Translations under genes and position numbers: made by a program
Notes under the pieces: generated by a model
What the model was told of the DNA's origin: nothing
The model's input: the letters and a program-made list of their open reading frames with translations, nothing else
The model's database searches: none
Assembly: GCA_964106645.2 (NCBI GenBank)
Contig: OZ067047.1
DNA from: Podarcis pityusensis
Lineage: Eukaryota
Reading direction: 5' to 3' (one strand)
DNA length: 64,000 bases
Shown: positions 32,118-57,939 of the stretch, piece after piece
Position numbering within the stretch: position 1 is the stretch's first letter
How the letters are laid out: every line of letters starts with the position of its first letter

Positions 32118-32576
32118 TGTCAGGTCTGTAGGTGGTTGCTTGCCAGTAAACAGCCAGGACTCCAACCTGTCTTTTCCAGGTTTTATTTAGTGCAACTATT
32201 TACAGTTCAGAGATCCAAAGTTCATGTCTGTCTCAGTCACTTGCAGATTCCGGGAGTGGCTTCATCCTGTTCCCCACCCCACCCCCAGCATAAGAACTTA
32301 GACACCCCAAATCTCTGCCTCCTTTCCTTATGTTTAACCCCCTTGCGAAAACTGGGTGATGGAAGTGGCATGTTTATTTCCCGACCAGCCTGGCTGAGAG
32401 AGGTGCTAAGGCTCAAAGTAACGTCTGTGAGCCTTTGCCTCGCTTTGCCCCTCCTTTCCACCTCTGCTTCTTCGGAGGCTTCACTCTCTCCACTCCCGAC
32501 GAAGCGCTACTGCAGTGTTGGAGGCTCCCTGTACTCTTCTGCCCCCCTCCTCCCTTTCGATGGCAGTACCCTGACA
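32118..32576 (-). mobile_element. Solo LTR (459 bp, Gypsy-like) with an internal reading frame
   Basis: TGTCAGG...CCTGACA inverted termini; minus-strand AATAAA at 32182-32187; imperfect TSD TATA/GATA. Confidence 0.75.
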
Positions 32577-49046: not shown

Positions 49047-50237
49047 GCATTTGCCCCTTTTGGAGTGAGAAGGGATGATCTTCCACTTGCATGCCTCCTT
49101 TCATTCTTCACAGCCGTGGTGGCTTTGGTGTCCAATGCAAGAGAGAATTGAAGAAGCACAAGGTTGTCTCAAGTAGTCAAAGCTGAGTCCGTGCATCTCC
49201 TACCACCACCACCCTCACTAGGAATATGTGTGTGCTGTGCCATCCCTGCATCTATATAGAATAGGCTCATCATAGGGAGAGGCAGGGGCAGGAGGGGCAG
49301 GCCCACCTTCTAACCTTGGGAAGGGCCATGCACAAGGTCTCAGGTTCAACCTCCCTTAACTCCAGGTGGGACTGGGAGAGAACCCAGCCTGAAATCCTGG
49401 AGAGCTACTGCCAGCAATACTGAGCTAGATGGACCAATAGTCTGAGTGAGTATAAGGCAGGCATCCTATATTCCTAAACCAGGAATGGAAGAGGAAGCAG
49501 AACTCACACATCATCTTTGGCTAGGCTTATCTAGCTGATCAGCAAGGAGCCCTGGCCCAGTACTAAGAACATCAGAGCATAAGACCACTACTGATGTGGA
49601 TGCACCTCCTGGCTCCAGTCTGTCTACATAACCTGTAACCAACAAGTCTGCTGGATAGAGAGTGCATATATTTTGTACACAGATTGGGTCTACTGACATG
49701 ACATAGGGTTGCATCCAACTAAGTTCTGCTTAGAGTAAAAGGTAATCTCACCTACTCTAAGTATGACTATCATTGAATATAACCCACAATAAAAACATGG
49801 AAATTATAAGCATGGCCAGCAGAGGTGATTCTGCTCCATTCTCCATGAGTGTATTGCATTCCCATTTGTACACACCTTTCTAAGAATGGCATGAGCTCAT
49901 TCAGCAAATCTAGCCACAGGAGGTTGGTTCATTAGGACAAAGAAGGCACTGCCCCCACCAGCCTTAGCCTGCCTCTCAGCCTGCCTCTCAGCCAGCCCCC
50001 ACCTGCCCAACTTCCTGTCTTCCTACTTACAAACAATCCAAGGGATGGCACTTTGTCAGCTTCCCCCTTAGTTTCAGAGTTGCCCTTGTAGAACTCAACA
50101 AGGAGGAAGATGGGGACCAAAACCAGGAGAAGTTGGCTCTGCTTATCAGTTGCTTTGCCTGCTCTGTGCAATTGAGGTTCTACATCATCTGGGGAAATTC
50201 TTCCCTCTTCACTGCAGACCTTTGCCCTCCAACACAT

Positions 50238-50607
50238 TGAAATATACTCAGAGTCGCAAAGTGATTTCATGCTCTTTATTCAGCTCATAGTGGTGAGGAG
50301 GAATGAATAAATGTCCCCTCACAGTATCTGCTTTATATACATTATTTACACAATGGGCTGCACATGATTGGCTAATTCTGGAATTCTACTGTAAGCCAAT
50401 CAGGTTGTGGATTCACTTCTATCTGGAGCAGGATTGGGTGGTTCCTGCCAACCAATCATACTGCTGCATTGTTCTAGGACCAATCAGACTGCTGCATTCT
50501 GAATCCTATTGTTCTAGGACCAATCAGACTGCTGCCTTTTGGATCCTATTGTTCTAGGACCAATCAGACTGCTACAGTTTGGATCCTATTCAACTCAGTA
50601 CATAACA
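50238..50607 (-). repeat. 3' LTR of the Gypsy element
   Basis: Follows the PPT; minus-strand TATATAAAG (~50331-50339) and AATAAA (50275-50280). Confidence 0.95.
50468..50590. promoter_or_regulatory. Three 40-bp tandem repeats, each with a CCAAT box, in LTR U3 (also at 55050-55172)
   Basis: Unit ATTGTTCTAGGACCAATCAGACTGCTGCATTCTGAATCCT (with variants) starting at 50468, 50508 and 50548. Confidence 0.8.
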
Positions 50608-50620
50608 CCCCTCCCCTCTA
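50608..50620 (-). other. Polypurine tract
   Basis: TAGAGGGGAGGGG directly before the 3' LTR; overlaps the pol TAG stop. Confidence 0.9.
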
Positions 50621-53600
50621 AGTTCCAGTCCTGCCCGGGAGGTCGCATTCATAGTCCTCAAGGTATGCCGGCGGCCTACGTGTGCGTTGTGGCCTGGGGT
50701 GTTCCCTGGTCCGGGCTCCGGGTTCTGGCTCGTGTTCCAAGGATGCTGGCTGTGATGCGGCTGTTTGGTCTGGTGCAACCGGCTCGCTCAGTCGTGGTTC
50801 TGGTTCCGGTGTCCTTTCGGCCTCACGGGTCCTCTCTGTATTTACTGATTCTGCCTCTCCTGCTGGCCCCTCCTGCTCTATGGGCCTCACTGCCCCGCTG
50901 TTCCCTTGGGACTCCTCTGACCTGTCCTCCTCCTGGTTTTCTCCCGGGAATCGTCGCCGTATCTGGTCGCAGTGGCGGCGCCAGCATTGCCCCCCATCCG
51001 TTAGCACCTCGTACGACACGGGGCCAGTGACCCTGGTGATTGTGGCGGGTACCCATGCTGGGCCTGCCCCAAAATTCTTTGCGTACACTGGGTCCTGGGC
51101 CTCGAAGGTCCGGGGGTTCCTGCCTTCCCCCACCACTACCTCATCCTGAGCTCTATCGGGGTGAAGGCGGTCCAATCTGATTGCAAGGCGCCGACCCATT
51201 AGTAGTTCAGCGGGGCTCCGGCCAGTCGTTGAGCTGGGGGTGCTGTGCTGTGCTAGAAGGAATGTGGCAAGGCGGTACTCCCAGTCCCCTTGCGTCATGC
51301 GGCGAAGGGTGTCCTTGGTGGTCCGCACCATGCGTTCTGCTTGGCCATTGGTGGCAGGGTGGAACGGCGCCGAACGGATGTGGCGGATGGCGTTCTGCGC
51401 TGTGAAGGTTTGGAATTCTCCTGACGTAAATGCAGTCCCGTTGTCTGAGACGAGAGTGTCAGGGAGCCCGTGGGTTGCAAACAGCCTGCGTAGTACCCGG
51501 ATGGCTGCGGACGTGGAAGTGGACGGTACCAGTGCGACTTCCAGCCATTTGGTGTAGGAGTCCACCACTATGAAGAATGTTTTCCCCTGAAAGGGGCCAG
51601 CAAAATCCACATGCAGGCGTGACCATGGTGCTCGGGCGGACTCCCAGGACTGGACTGGGGCCCTTGGGGGGTCTGGGCGGGATTCTTGGCAGGCCTGGCA
51701 GTGTTTGACCCAGGCCTCTATCTCTCCATCGATCCCCGGCCACCACACATAACTCCTGGCAAGGGCCTTCATTCTTACTACCCCTGGATGTGTCTCGTGT
51801 AGGGCTGTGAGGACCCTTTTGCAGAGGGGCTGGGGAACAACGACTCTGCTTCCCCATAACAGGCACCCCTTGTGGGCCGACAGTTCATGTTTGCGGGTTG
51901 TGTAGCCGGCGAATTCTGGCCCGGGGCTGCTGCTGGGCCATCCCCTCCACACCCAGTCCAGGACCCGGGAGATGACCCTATCTTTCTTGGAATGGTGTGC
52001 AACTTCTTGTGCCTGAATGGGGCGGTCGGGAAGCAGCTCCAGGCTCATAACCTCTTGTGCAGGTGCTGGGTCAGGGCCTGTTTCCGGTAGTGGTAGCCTG
52101 CTGAGGGCGTCCGCATGGCCCATCGCCTTCCCAGGTCGGTGAATCAGTGCATACTGGTAGCTGGCAAGGAAAATTGACCACCTGAGGACGCGAGGAGACA
52201 GCACTTGGGGGGTCTGCTTTTCGGGGGCAAACAAGCCAAGCAACGGCTTGTGGTCAGTCACCACGGTGAAGGGCCGCCCGTACAAGAAATCATGGAATTT
52301 TTTTACTCCCTTTACGATTGCCAGACCCTCCTTGTCGATTTGCGAGTAGTTCCGCTCGGTTGTGTTGAGTGTCTGGGAAAAGTACGCCACCGGTACCTCT
52401 CTTCCATCCGGGAGTTGGTGCCCCAGGACAGCTCCAATGCCATAGGGTGAGGCGTCGCATGCTAGCACCACCGGCAGCCTCTCGTCGAAGTGTGCCAAGA
52501 CCGAGTTTGAGACAAGCAAGTCCTTGACTGCCTGGAATGCGGCCTCCTGGCGCTGGCCCCACACCCAAGGGGCCCGCTTGTCCAGGAGTCTATGTAGGGG
52601 CTCCGCTACCGCCGCCTTGTGGGGAAGGAAGGAATGGTAAAAGTTCAATAGTCCCAAGAAGGCCTGAAGTTCAGTCTTGCTCTTGGGCGCTGGGGCATCA
52701 CAAATGGCCCGTACCTTGTCCCCAGTCGGGTGGACCCCTTCTGCGTCCACCATAAATCCCAGAAAGTCCACCTGAGGCACTCCTAGTAGACATTTTTCCC
52801 GCTTCACCTTGAGACCCGCCGTCTGGAAACGGTGCAGAACGGTGCGGAGGCGGTCCTCAAACTCCTCTGGTGTGGGGCCGGCAATCAACACATCATCGAA
52901 GAAGGGGGTGACGCCAGGAATCCCTTTAAGGAGAGAGTCCATTATATTCTGGAATATGCCTGGTGCCACGCTGACACCGAATTGCAGCCGCTTTACCCTG
53001 AACGCTCCTCTGTGCGTCACAATCGTCTGTGCCTCTGCTGTGGCCTCATCTACTGGCAGCTGTTGATATGCTTGGGCCAAGTCCAGCTTGCCAAAAATTT
53101 TCGACCCAGCCAGGGTGGCAAGGACATGGCTGACCACTGGCACTGGGTATGCGTGGGCCGTGAGGGCCTTGTTTATGGTACATTTGTAGTCTGCGCAGAT
53201 GCGGACCGAACCATTAGGCTTGACGGGTGTGACGATTGGGGTTTCCCAGGGAGCATTAGGCACCGGCTCCAGCACTCCTTGCTCTACGAGTCGGTCCAAT
53301 TCCTCGTCTATACGGGGTTTCAAGGCGAACGGGACCCGGCGGGCCTTGAGCCTGACCGGTCGTACTGCGGGGTCAAGCTGTAGCGCAATGGGGGGGCCCG
53401 TATACTGTCCCAATTTCCCATCGAAAACCCCTGGAAATTCCTTGCATATGGCGTCCACGTCCACTTGTAAGCTAGTGTGGTTCACCCCGGTGACAGCTAG
53501 CCCCAGTGGTCCAAACCATGCCAATCCCAGTAAGCTAATGTAGGGGCCCTTGACCACAAGCAAGTCCAGTTGCCGCGTCCGCCCTCGGTATTGCACCCTG

Positions 53601-54694
53601 AAGGTCCCCACCCCCATTGTGGGGACCTTACGTTTCTGGAAGTCCCGGAGGGTGAATGGGGCCGGCCTGAGTTTGGGACCCCCAGTGGGACACAGTTTCC
53701 TTAAGGTCCTTGCCGAGATTATGGATAGAGTTGAACCCGTGTCAAGCTCCATGCGGCATGGGGCCCCCTCTATCTGTACCTCTACATAAATTTTCTCTAC
53801 GTTGGGGTGGGGCAACTGGTATACCTGGAAGTCCGTGAGCTCCGTCGAGTTGCCTTGGTGCGTTGGGCCCCGGGACCTGGGGCTCTTGGATTGGTCATCT
53901 GATGCCTGGTGTCGGGTGGGCCGAGCCCGACACACCCGGGCGATGTGTCCCGATTTTCTGCACTGCCTGCACTCTGCGTTGCGGAAACGGCAGGTCCTCC
54001 TCTCGTGACTCTCCCCGCAGCTTGCGCAGTTCCCTCCTTCTCGTCGAGGCAGCTGTGGTCTGTGCGCTGCTTGAGTGCGCTGCTGTACTCGGTGCACCTC
54101 CTCCCTGTCGGATCCTGAGTCGTCGGTGAGGTCTTCATGGTGGACCCTCGGTTGGGATGGCAGGCTCGGCCGTGCCTCTTGGGTCGACCTCTCGGCAGCT
54201 TCTGTTGCCAGGGCCTCCTCCAGAGCGACCTGGAACGTTAGGTCCTTCTTAGCGTAGAGGCGTCGTTGCAGCTTCTCATCCTTCAGGCCACCGACGAGGC
54301 GGTCACGAAGCATGTTCTCCAGCTCTGAGAAGTTGCAGAACCGGGCGGCTTGGCGGAGAGAGGTCACAAACCCAGTTATGGTTTCCCCAGGGGCTTGCCG
54401 CTTTGCGTAGAAGGCATTTCGACGAGCCACCACTGAGGGCTGCGGCGAAAAGTGCCCCTTCAGCTGTTCCATTATTGTTTTGTATGGAACAGTAGCGACG
54501 TCTTCAGGCGCAAGGAGAGCCCGGGCGATTTCAAACGTCTCCTCTCTGCAGACGCTGAAGAATATCGCCCTCTTCTTGGCGTCTTCTTCGTCGGTGACCC
54601 CTTTGGCTTCTAGGAGGAAGGTGAAACGGGAGGCGTACGCTTCCCAGTCTCCAGATGCTGGGTTGAATGGCGAGAAGCTGCTGTTGGCTGCCAT
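50618..54694 (-). CDS. Gag-Pol polyprotein, single ORF of 1358 aa (gag with two Zn knuckles, aspartic protease, RT, RNase H, integrase)
   Basis: Knuckles CASCGESHERRTC and CRQCRKSGHIARVC; protease LDTGS; RT RICADY, KLDLAQAYQQL, RLQFGV, FFDD; RNase H DASPYGIGA, TDHKPL; integrase HETH..CQAC, VDF, SDNG, GQAER; C-terminal RTRRPPAYLEDY. The PR-RT-RH-IN order is Gypsy-type. Confidence 0.97.
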   Translation of the reverse strand: MAANSSFSPFNPASGDWEAYASRFTFLLEAKGVTDEEDAKKRAIFFSVCREETFEIARALLAPEDVATVPYKTIMEQLKGHFSPQPSVVARRNAFYAKRQAPGETITGFVTSLRQAARFCNFSELENMLRDRLVGGLKDEKLQRRLYAKKDLTFQVALEEALATEAAERSTQEARPSLPSQPRVHHEDLTDDSGSDREEVHRVQQRTQAAHRPQLPRREGGNCASCGESHERRTCRFRNAECRQCRKSGHIARVCRARPTRHQASDDQSKSPRSRGPTHQGNSTELTDFQVYQLPHPNVEKIYVEVQIEGAPCRMELDTGSTLSIISARTLRKLCPTGGPKLRPAPFTLRDFQKRKVPTMGVGTFRVQYRGRTRQLDLLVVKGPYISLLGLAWFGPLGLAVTGVNHTSLQVDVDAICKEFPGVFDGKLGQYTGPPIALQLDPAVRPVRLKARRVPFALKPRIDEELDRLVEQGVLEPVPNAPWETPIVTPVKPNGSVRICADYKCTINKALTAHAYPVPVVSHVLATLAGSKIFGKLDLAQAYQQLPVDEATAEAQTIVTHRGAFRVKRLQFGVSVAPGIFQNIMDSLLKGIPGVTPFFDDVLIAGPTPEEFEDRLRTVLHRFQTAGLKVKREKCLLGVPQVDFLGFMVDAEGVHPTGDKVRAICDAPAPKSKTELQAFLGLLNFYHSFLPHKAAVAEPLHRLLDKRAPWVWGQRQEAAFQAVKDLLVSNSVLAHFDERLPVVLACDASPYGIGAVLGHQLPDGREVPVAYFSQTLNTTERNYSQIDKEGLAIVKGVKKFHDFLYGRPFTVVTDHKPLLGLFAPEKQTPQVLSPRVLRWSIFLASYQYALIHRPGKAMGHADALSRLPLPETGPDPAPAQEVMSLELLPDRPIQAQEVAHHSKKDRVISRVLDWVWRGWPSSSPGPEFAGYTTRKHELSAHKGCLLWGSRVVVPQPLCKRVLTALHETHPGVVRMKALARSYVWWPGIDGEIEAWVKHCQACQESRPDPPRAPVQSWESARAPWSRLHVDFAGPFQGKTFFIVVDSYTKWLEVALVPSTSTSAAIRVLRRLFATHGLPDTLVSDNGTAFTSGEFQTFTAQNAIRHIRSAPFHPATNGQAERMVRTTKDTLRRMTQGDWEYRLATFLLAQHSTPSSTTGRSPAELLMGRRLAIRLDRLHPDRAQDEVVVGEGRNPRTFEAQDPVYAKNFGAGPAWVPATITRVTGPVSYEVLTDGGQCWRRHCDQIRRRFPGENQEEDRSEESQGNSGAVRPIEQEGPAGEAESVNTERTREAERTPEPEPRLSEPVAPDQTAASQPASLEHEPEPGARTREHPRPQRTRRPPAYLEDYECDLPGRTGT

Positions 54695-54800
54695 TCTGAG
54701 TTCCTTGTGCCCCGGAGCTGAAGCCTGGATACACGGTGCGAGGCAGCGGTGCGGCAGTTGGCGGTGCTGCGGTGCTGTGTGTGGCAGTCAGCTCAGCGGG

Positions 54801-54818
54801 ATCCCACCTTCGTCGCCA
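54801..54818 (-). other. Primer binding site complementary to the 3' end of tRNA-Ser(GCT)
   Basis: Minus strand TGGCGACGAAGGTGGGAT, 1 nt after the LTR CA; the plus strand ATCCCACCTTCGTCGCCA matches my recollection of the vertebrate tRNA-Ser(GCT) 3' end plus CCA. Confidence 0.85.
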
Positions 54819-54819
54819 G

Positions 54820-55189
54820 TGAAATATACTCAGAGTCGCAAAGTGATTTCATGCTCTTTATTCAGCTCATAGTGGTGAGGAGGAATGAATAAATGTCCCC
54901 TCACAGTATCTGCTTTATATACATTATTTACACAATGGGCTGCACATGATTGGCTAATTCTGGAATTCTACTGTAAGCCAATCAGGTTGTGGATTCACTT
55001 CTATCTGGAGCAGGATTGGGTGGTTCCTGCCAACCAATCATACTGCTGCATTGTTCTAGGACCAATCAGACTGCTGCATTCTGAATCCTATTGTTCTAGG
55101 ACCAATCAGACTGCTGCCTTTTGGATCCTATTGTTCTAGGACCAATCAGACTGCTACAGTTTGGATCCTATTCAACTCAGTACATAACA
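54820..55189 (-). repeat. 5' LTR of the Gypsy element
   Basis: Reads TGTTATGTAC...ATATTTCA on minus; adjacent to the PBS; matches 50238-50607. Confidence 0.95.
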
Positions 55190-55561
55190 CACATAGAGGT
55201 CAGTGGGTGGCCGTGGAGAGTGGTCCTTTGCACTCACATTATTTTCCTTGTACAAGGGTTAGAAGGCCCAAACAGAGTTCAAGAGGTTCAGAACTGCAGG
55301 GGAGATGAGAGCATCTGACCAAAGGCATCTGTCTGAACATTTCTGATAGAGAAGTCTTCAGTTCCGGAAGTGAGCTGTCTCCACCTTTCTGCGGCACTGA
55401 ATTAAATCTGTCATTTGTTATTTTGCCTCACTGATGTGCATTAAAAAAAAAAAAAAACAGCTCTGGGCTGTAATCGTCACTCTTCTAAGGCTGCAGAGTA
55501 ATTGCTGGCAGCCATGGAAACCAACTTTCCATAGTCATTTATAAACTTGACCCTCTATAAT

Positions 55562-55987
55562 GGTATGGGGTTGCTCATGCGTAAGTTGCCGCCTCTCCTG
55601 GCTATGTTGCCTTGTTAAACCTTTCTGTCTAGACAGCCCTTCAATTCGTGGCTGCCTCAGTCGCTAGCAGAATCCGTCAGTGGGCGTTTCTTAAACCTTT
55701 TCCAACATAAAAGTTGTTTGACACCCAGTCTCCTCCTACTTTCTCTGCGCGGAAGTCTTCTGCGCAGGGAGGGCGTGGGTAGCGGAGGACCAGTGCTCTC
55801 CCCGCTGGTGTCCGGTGAAGAGTCTGGGAGCCCTCTCGCCGATTCCCCCATCTGCCCCTCCTTATTCCTGGTGTTGCACTGAATTGCTTCCCCATCTGCT
55901 GAGCTGCGTCTCTCCCTGCTGGGCCCTTCTCCAGCATCATTAGAGAGCCTTCCCTCCACCTCTAGCTCCGATGTCAGTTCCCTGACA
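55562..55987 (-). mobile_element. LTR related to 32118-32576, apparently truncated at its 3' end
   Basis: Begins TGTCAGGGAACTGACATCG (compare TGTCAGGGTACTGCCATCG); shares the translated motif; left boundary uncertain. Confidence 0.65.
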
Positions 55988-57939
55988 CCCTCCTTGCCGC
56001 TTTACTACTGCGTTAAGGTCAGCTGCGGTAGGGGTGGGGGAGAGAGAGAAAGAGAGAGAGAGAGATAAATCTGGAACTGTGTTTGCAAACTGGTGGTAGG
56101 CTTGTCAGCCTAAGTAACAAAAGGCATGACCCTTCCTATCAGCCATATGGGAGACAGACAGCACAGCTATTTACATGAGTGATACAGCAGTTTTACGGCA
56201 GGAACCTTACAATGATGAGTTATCCAAAGAGTCTGATTTCTCTTCTCTCCCTGTCAGCCTGTCAATCTCCTGTAGATGTGCGGAGGGTGGCCCTTGATGA
56301 GACAGGGCCTTTACACCAGTGGTCCTTCTCAGCCTGTGGAAACTCTCCCTAAAGAGGTTTACCTGGTGTTGACATCCTCCTTTTAGCCCCAGGCCAATAC
56401 TTCTCCCAGTCATTTGACTGCCATTCTGTTTTCCTGCTGCTTGGTAGTTTGTTGTGATTGTGCTGGTGTCATGGGGAGGTTGGGGTTTTATTGTACCATC
56501 ACTTTTAATTTCTTTTTAAGATGTTTAATTTGTGTGTGATTTTATATTTGGATTGTATTTCTTGATGCAAGTCACATGAGAATATGGAATGTGTGCTGTC
56601 ATTTTTGAGGTACATGCTTCTAGGGAGAGACAAATCTGTCCCATTCAGTTTCTCTTGCTTTCTCATTTTCCCAATCTTAAATTCAGTTTACCACATTCCT
56701 GCTTCAGAGTCTGATTTAAAACAAAAAAGCAAAGCCCTCATGAAAATTTTTCAGCATTTAAGGTTGGTTCAGAAAAGGGCTTAAGGGAGCAAGGTATAGA
56801 TGGAATACACTGTAGAGCAATGAGCCCCATCTGTCTATTTTATGGCTGGGGCTTCACTTAGTAGAACAATACACAGAAGTGTGAGACCATGTCGTGCATT
56901 CTTGTCATAACTGCAGGCCCGATTGTGGAATTGACTCCATAAGAGGCCAACCAGACAATCTGCAGTGCTGATGCCATCTCCTGGGAGTGACAATCCGACT
57001 TGTGAACCTTGTCACCTAGTTTAGTTGGTCAAAAGAAGCTTCTGGGAACCCGAGGAGAGCCCTTGACTGAATAGCAGGAAGTGTCAGTGACAAGAGACTG
57101 ACAGAAGCAATTCAGTTTAATTTAATTCAATCATCCTTCTGTTGCCCTGACAAAAAAAGTCTCGGAAAAGGACATCCCCTTAGGTCTCTGTCAAGGGTGT
57201 GCAAAGCCTATCCAGGATGTGGGGGGGTCACATGCACTCATTTTGGGGTTTGATCTCCCGAGCCCATTTGTCATCCATTTCAATTCTGGGTCCGATGGCA
57301 GGTTGTTACATAGCCCGGTGGCCTCTCTGCCGTCTCGCTCCACAAAGGCCAAATGCAATTTTCTCCATTTCCTTTTGACATGACGTCTTATTAGGGTGCT
57401 TGATAAATTGAGGATGCCATCTTCCTTGCCGTTGCTCATACTCAGGGCAGCGGCAGAGAAGCCCTTCCACACAGGCAGTAGTAGCTCCCTGTTGCCGATC
57501 TGGGCACTTGCTTAGTACATAGTGGCGATAACACCCCTTGGGGTTTTTTTTGTAAATAATTACAAGCATGGGGAACCCAACTCTTACTGTGAAGGCAGCA
57601 CATGGGAGGTATATCTCTTCAGTTCCCCATCATGATTAGCACCAAGATCCTGCTCCCTGGCATAGCTAGCTGTCTGAGAGGTGGTATCTCTATTGGTGCC
57701 AGGGCAGACATTTTTTTGTAGTCGCAAACTCTCCATTCTGATCATGAGTTGGGAAAGGGTGTGTGTGAAGAGATAAGCCTCCTCTCCCCATGCACTGACT
57801 TCACAGTAGGAATCAGGCTCCCCTGCACACTTCTCGCTTGGTGCTATTGGGTGTTTAAAGTGCAGCTATATTGGGGAAAGTTCATTCTGCCCATTTGATC
57901 CCTAAATGATTTTTTCCTTCAATTATTATTATATTTTTA

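Follow-up and report, generated by a model that had tools for sequence, protein, structure and literature searches.

An LTR-encoded extension of pol in chromodomain Gypsy elements of the lizard Podarcis pityusensis

The stretch of DNA analyzed here (the window) comprises 64,000 nucleotides of contig OZ067047.1 of the Podarcis pityusensis assembly GCA_964106645.2, and harbors two solo LTRs on the minus strand. LTR A (32118-32576) is a solo LTR of 459 bp with the termini TGTCA...TGACA and an imperfect 5-bp target duplication. It belongs to an older family, termed A, the other copies of which are 74-87% identical, many of them with 5-bp duplications. LTR B (55556-55987) is a solo LTR of 432 bp that belongs to the young family B and is flanked by the duplication GAGGG on both sides (55988-55992 and 55551-55555). 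Family B is very young: the first look yielded 2,069 candidates, and the best 40 scored matches are all 99-100% identical. Its LTRs end in TA instead of CA (55556-55560 in the window; L031-L060), whereas those of an older B subfamily end in CA; despite its TA ends, the family is present in great numbers. A BLASTN self-comparison of the window left LTR A and LTR B unpaired. Both derive from Gypsy elements that possess a chromodomain and follow the self-priming layout of Tf1/sushi; as solo LTRs, they are presumably leftovers of recombination that decay neutrally. The window also contains a young full-length Gypsy element of another kind (50235-55190, minus strand), with 374-bp LTRs of 99.7% identity and a single frame of 1,389 codons (50621-54787) that stops 13 bases before the 3′ LTR.

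LTR A carries a decayed pol-tail frame (32237-32575, minus strand), which is interrupted by a TAG at 32507-32509, as noted before, and is lost between 32284 and 32260. Sequence comparison assigned a basic motif of 28 codons ending in Cys-Trp to 32285-32368 (minus strand). The frame is lost after the Trp codon, where the last residues of the family lie in another frame, so that the reading of LTR A ends unlike its own family. The transcript start and 11-nt self-primer of family A are predicted at 32247-32257 (minus strand) by position from families B, C and D, and an AATAAA at 32182-32187 (minus strand), 3′ of the stop of the frame, is likely the poly(A) signal. LTR B possesses an unbroken pol-tail frame of 109 codons plus a stop (55657-55986, minus strand), which consists of an acidic, Ser/Gly-containing spacer followed by the basic motif. 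The conserved terminal motif has 42 codons (55660-55785, minus strand) and a net charge of about +10. Its Leu-Leu-Cys codons contain an AT-rich stretch (55706-55712, minus strand), a possible TATA element at -31 to -25 of the predicted transcript start; this start and the 11-nt self-primer, which is complementary to the sequence following the 5′ LTR in full-length elements, are placed at 55671-55681 (minus strand). In addition, a second short conserved block is located near the LTR start, namely YREPP at codons 15-19 of LTR A. Blocks of this type occur in families A, E and F (L140, L170), with a variant in L172, and are absent from families B, C and D.

The preliminary description of this DNA had drawn attention to an Arg-rich peptide motif shared by the two LTRs, and its positions, LTR starts and readings from base 2 were all reproduced as written. 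A recount of the 28-codon blocks (32285-32368 against 55702-55785) gave 14/28 identical residues, seven of which use different codons, exactly those it had listed. Base identity at codon positions 1, 2 and 3 of the blocks is 17, 21 and 9 of 28, respectively, with a pS of 0.90 and a pN of 0.30. When the same 37 mismatches were randomly placed, at least 14 identities were reached in 0.08% of 100,000 trials. The other sense frames gave 6 and 5 identities of 27, and the mirrored antisense frame gave 15/27, owing to the middle codon position that the two readings have in common. The shared motif extends beyond the 28 residues up to the stop, over ~42 codons. Its Trp is invariant in 16/16 aligned copies of divergent families and its Cys nearly so; the charge ranges from -18 to -23 in the linker and from +9 to +10 in the terminal motif. 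Moreover, the frame lies inside the true LTR and not outside it, the LTRs being bounded by target-site duplications.

One explanation offered earlier, a C-terminal tail of Pol/integrase read through the PPT, was borne out in full-length relatives of families B, C and D, where pol stays open through the PPT, as it does in some older sisters. After the chromodomain comes an acidic linker of about 89-100 residues, followed by the PPT and then by the LTR in the same frame. In family B, the chromodomain and the start of the LTR share one frame at 26/30 loci, and at 13 of the 30 no break occurs between the SH3 end and the stop. Of 30 family B loci, three run on into gag: a family B element complete with its two LTRs is present at two of them, and the third contains a nested element that belongs to a different family, C. 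A search with a PPT-plus-LTR pattern returned 1,583 matches, and 26 of the 30 loci fetched belong to a new family, D, with 24/26 loci unbroken and an element whose unbroken pol of 1,374 codons ends in the LTR. Family C, with 1,411 junction matches, has an unbroken pol of 1,556 codons including ~210 LTR codons, and frames of at least 1,544 codons were counted by hand in ~104 of its best 150 matches. Among the older copies, the frames of which were read by eye, L139, L140, L143, L145, L146, L149, L167-L170 and L172 are in frame. The LTR frame is thus an integrase tail fused to pol, and not a peptide made by solo LTRs. The earlier wording that solo LTRs encode the peptide was overstated: the predicted transcript start falls in the last seven codons of the frame, so that a solo LTR cannot express the peptide from its own promoter.

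The pol of these elements shows the order PR-RT-RH-IN, with Pfam matches to protease, RT, RNase H, integrase, SH3_Tf2-1 and Chromo. From the integrase core onwards, it is arranged as SH3 (GPY/F), chromodomain, acidic linker, PPT, acidic spacer and basic motif. The chromodomain (PF00385) scored above the cut-off in family D and is also listed for Podarcis relatives; the pol of family C gave no Pfam chromodomain match, with a similar stretch visible by eye. As judged by eye, the chromodomains of families B and D lack the first and third cage aromatics, which are kept by a different Podarcis family. Chromodomains lacking those aromatics are assigned to group II in the available text of PMC3605345. 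Several family D elements are arranged in tandem and share LTRs (L094-L096 and L128; C1:1.79-1.81 Mb). In addition, a large share of the old full-length copies resides on C19 (38 Mb), which might conceivably be a non-recombining sex chromosome.

Similarity searches found the nearest named proteins among Podarcis muralis models and the nearest named non-lizard matches among fish chromodomain Gypsy proteins. Independent models from P. muralis have the same tail at their end. Pfam found no family in the tail, a PDB profile search gave one chance match (E 0.24), and an Atlas search gave no usable match. A tail profile compared with 1.84 billion representatives found three matches, all unnamed and of the same lineage; a further tail search found six, the named ones all from Podarcis, which does not bound the range of the tail outside lacertids. 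One P. muralis model of a phospholipid-transporting ATPase (A0A670JKR6, P0001) also ends in the family B tail, a fusion that reflects either a gene-model error or exonisation. Another Podarcis chromovirus family (P0011, P0068, P0070) has a different post-chromodomain tail of ~95 residues, likewise acidic then basic, with an RRSARL stretch that presumably resembles the HMGN core.

The suggestion that the frame is under selection was upheld at the protein level by both omega and the counts of shared and private variants. Omega was estimated from nine natural unbroken copies, picked from 39, of families B, older B, D and E. The last 42 codons, i.e. the motif, gave an omega of 0.20 (p 2e-10 against omega 1) and are as constrained as the chromodomain, given the value of 0.165 (p 2e-19) for the SH3 end and chromodomain; the acidic linker and the LTR spacer gave 0.36 (p 4e-8) and 0.53 (p 3e-3), respectively. 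For eight copies of five families, the pooled pN/pS, calculated over non-independent pairs, was 0.35 in the frame, compared to 1.0 and 1.7 for the remaining two sense frames. Variants were counted at loci passing the filters (A, 41/42; B, 62/66; D, 26/30; E, 9/10), a few of which carry the same LTR twice, affecting the two-copy class. In the motif of family B and its older subfamily, variants found in at least three copies comprise 4 non-synonymous and 15 synonymous changes, against 19 and 4 among singletons (p 1e-4). No comparable synonymous excess among shared variants was seen in the other frames or in the region after the stop. The same test had too few variants in family D and gave p 0.15 in family E. 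Family B and its older subfamily differ by nine synonymous changes and one non-synonymous change, and the invariant columns of the 42 codons number 14, 23 and 5 at codon positions 1, 2 and 3, respectively.

Family A, to which LTR A belongs, is the weakest case, its fusion with pol being only presumptive. Two junction copies were obtained by the first pattern and more by a DNA search; the PPT-bearing copies of family A and close sisters are mostly decayed, old and broken at several places. As read by eye, linker and tail lie in different frames in L129, L133, L134 and L136, and the linker is shifted in L132, whereas L130 is in frame but stopped and L135 is in frame. The sisters L137, L148, L150, L153, L154, L141 and L142 are also out of frame by eye, L137, L148 and L150 being otherwise open from chromodomain to LTR; these sister families have in-frame members or close relatives as well. 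A tree left the A-like copies without resolution. The breaks are most simply attributed to slippage in homopolymer stretches within the PPT, and a splice or a lineage-wide loss may be the alternative; a programmed -1 frameshift at the T-run was considered and rejected, as the -1 frame meets a stop at once. In family A, shared variants have an omega of 0.44-0.51, with no stop among 100 non-synonymous variants, whereas singletons have an omega of 1.07-1.40 (shared against private, p 0.044 and 0.003). With shared variants constrained and private ones neutral, the active ancestors of family A evidently kept the frame under selection as well.

The elements of families B, C and D have no tRNA primer binding site and contain a self-complementary site instead. 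Beginning two bases past the 5′ LTR, an 11-base stretch is complementary to LTR positions 307-317 in family B and 280-290 in family D. The primers of B and D differ by two changes, each matched on both sides, and family C shows the same arrangement by eye. The available text of PMC6317226 describes a self-priming layout of Tf1/Sushi elements that the 11-nt complement matches. For family A, an exact-pattern search for the primer site found no match, and one old A-like element has a 9/11 match after its 5′ LTR by eye. Families B, C and D all have their predicted transcript start 23 bases downstream of the Trp codon's first base, which puts the Leu-Leu-Cys codons at the predicted TATA position and makes the last seven codons the predicted primer. 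The motif is thus predicted to be doubly coding, for protein and for TATA position and self-primer, and part of its conservation may be at the DNA level. Most copies use TTA for the Leu preceding Cys, a preference accounted for by the predicted TATA position of these codons; the same Leu/Ile position is also coded by TTG, CTA, CTC and ATC. Overlap with a TATA element leaves these other codons, as well as the synonymous excess upstream, unexplained. Altogether, ~45 bases would be in triple use as predicted core promoter, reverse-transcription primer and protein.

The families differ in their chromosomal spread. Family D is evenly distributed along C1 0-100 Mb (100 matches), which makes a centromere-targeting role of its tail unlikely. 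Of the 85 C1 matches of family C, 24 fall within the last 1.5 Mb, and another 15 matches lie in the first 206 kb of C2; some of these are tandem copies. Among 20 first-3-kb stretches, family C is present in 6, family D in one and family B in none, several of the C copies lying beside telomere repeats; the 10-kb stretches from the same survey were selected at clusters and are thus biased. Young and for the most part intact, family C elements are nested in dense clusters located at the ends of contigs and adjacent to telomere repeats (C1:138.2-139.7 Mb; C2:0-1.45 Mb; ends of C4, C5, C7, C10, C12 and C16). Lacertid chromosomes are acrocentric.

We propose that the LTR frames probably constitute the C-terminus of pol, which runs through the PPT, takes in ~100-210 LTR codons with a selected basic Cys-Trp tip, and likely acts as an integrase tail for nuclear entry and chromatin binding. 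The tail would be translated only from the 3′ LTR copy, on full-length RNA and as part of pol, and would be retained on the mature integrase. The acidic linker may serve as a flexible leash, whereas the basic/aromatic tip might bind nucleosomes or import receptors, perhaps compensating for a chromodomain without two of its three cage aromatics. The same bases in the 5′ LTR copy are predicted to serve as core promoter and self-primer. A complex prediction for the LTR B tail and host H2A-H2B, run without alignment and without controls, scored 0.00, which carries no weight either way. It is unlikely, yet well in keeping with the strongly basic cluster and the even spread of family D, that the tail is only an NLS or a non-specific DNA-binding patch with no chromatin partner, and C-terminal NLSs of integrases are known in Ty1; however, an invariant Trp (16/16), a nearly invariant Cys and hydrophobic residues at fixed spacing would be needless for an NLS. 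That conservation belongs to promoter and self-primer DNA, the protein reading being a by-product of a frame merely kept open, appears very improbable. The motif does span the predicted -31 to +11, with TTA prevailing at the TATA position and the 11-nt primer constrained by pairing. By contrast, third positions vary the most, the synonymous changes between family B and its older subfamily prevail nine to one, four further codons serve at the Leu/Ile position, and the constraint reaches ~80 bases upstream of the TATA position, by which this explanation is largely refuted.

A spliced accessory protein of Rev/Tat type, for which the frame would be the last exon, had also been put forward and was not supported; we hold it to be very improbable. 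The motif is Arg-rich, and A-like elements have a T-run and then AG just before the LTR with a linker often out of frame, which a splice could bridge. Nevertheless, pol runs directly into the frame in B, C, D and several sisters, and this in-frame fusion explains the frame without a splice; a T-run before the PPT is ordinary, and the same old copies are broken at other places by slippage in homopolymers. Contigs of four presumed-RNA runs covered a family B element patchily, with two short-sided joints without GT-AG ends, a result that speaks neither for nor against splicing. Mimicry of the nucleosome-binding motif of CENP-C (an Arg anchor with an aromatic residue at +9), with variants steering the families to different chromatin, seems improbable. 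An Arg precedes the Trp by nine residues in LTR A, in LTR B and in the majority of A, B, C, D, E and L172 copies, as do R717/W726 in rat and R521-522/W530-531 in human CENP-C according to the available text of 10.1101/705699, and family C is concentrated in the last 1.5 Mb of C1. However, this spacing is cheap in an Arg-rich run and missing from F-type copies, the tail profile does not match CENP-C in PDB at E 10, and family C adjoins telomere repeats at both ends of individual contigs, some of the clustered copies being tandem duplicates. The nine-residue spacing as in CENP-C, read from sequence, is a lead only. A broader version would be that lacertid chromoviruses independently evolved the CRM design, in which an LTR-encoded, CENP-C-like nucleosome hook replaces a degenerate chromodomain and family versions steer integration, that of family C to centromeric or telomere-proximal chromatin. 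We consider this rather unlikely; if true, it would represent a vertebrate retrotransposon that is centrophilic and whose targeting peptide can be defined.

In the U3 of HIV and MMTV, the coding sequences nef and sag are separate genes expressed on spliced RNA, unlike the lizard U3 frame, which is fused to pol. It had been stated that Gypsy LTRs are normally non-coding; this has known exceptions among plant chromoviruses, CRM and Bingo, in the published text available. Plant CRM group A is defined by a pol that runs into the 3′ LTR and a conserved motif (available text of PMC3059260), the LTR-encoded part of the tail being variable except for a conserved motif at its terminus (as far as the text of PMC3059260 and PMC3605345 extends). 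This CR motif, LTR-encoded and a putative targeting domain, is a precedent for the layout of families B, C and D, where pol likewise extends into the 3′ LTR. According to the available texts, CRM group A lost its chromodomain along with the gain of CHDCR and primes with tRNA-Met, whereas the lizard elements have retained their chromodomain, located upstream of the PPT, and are predicted to be self-priming. Moreover, the host is a vertebrate and family D is dispersed; the lizard elements share the CRM layout but do not belong to the CRM clade. Beet Bingo1-4 and 7 resemble them in a chromodomain upstream of the PPT and an ORF reaching into the LTR, but are plant elements for which the available text of PMC3605345 describes no conserved LTR-encoded motif.

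The lizard elements resemble Tf1/Sushi V-clade vertebrate chromoviruses in domain order, SH3_Tf2-1 and chromodomain, and 5-bp target duplication, as well as in the 11-nt self-priming layout without a tRNA PBS (PMC6317226, available text). Compared to catfish (Hemibagrus) relatives, which end ~15-20 residues after a glycine run that likely marks the PPT, the lizard families add an acidic linker of 90-100 residues and 100-210 LTR-encoded residues with a conserved tip. P. muralis UniRef models named ‘Gypsy retrotransposon integrase-like protein 1’ (for instance A0A670HKZ8 and A0A670K6E2) already contain the tail, without domain annotation and under names that do not mark its LTR origin. In the literature searched, no vertebrate LTR-encoded integrase tail was found, and the available text of PMC3601003 mentions no ORF; entries in Repbase, Dfam or GyDB, or paper supplements, could hold one. 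The LTR-encoded integrase tail thus has a plant precedent, and the vertebrate case is apparently unreported.

This convergent vertebrate case comprises thousands of young copies in families that differ in tail and chromosomal spread, which makes them a natural comparison for how integrases choose chromatin. Furthermore, every solo LTR carries a ready basic C-terminus for gene models, or real exonisation, to pick up.
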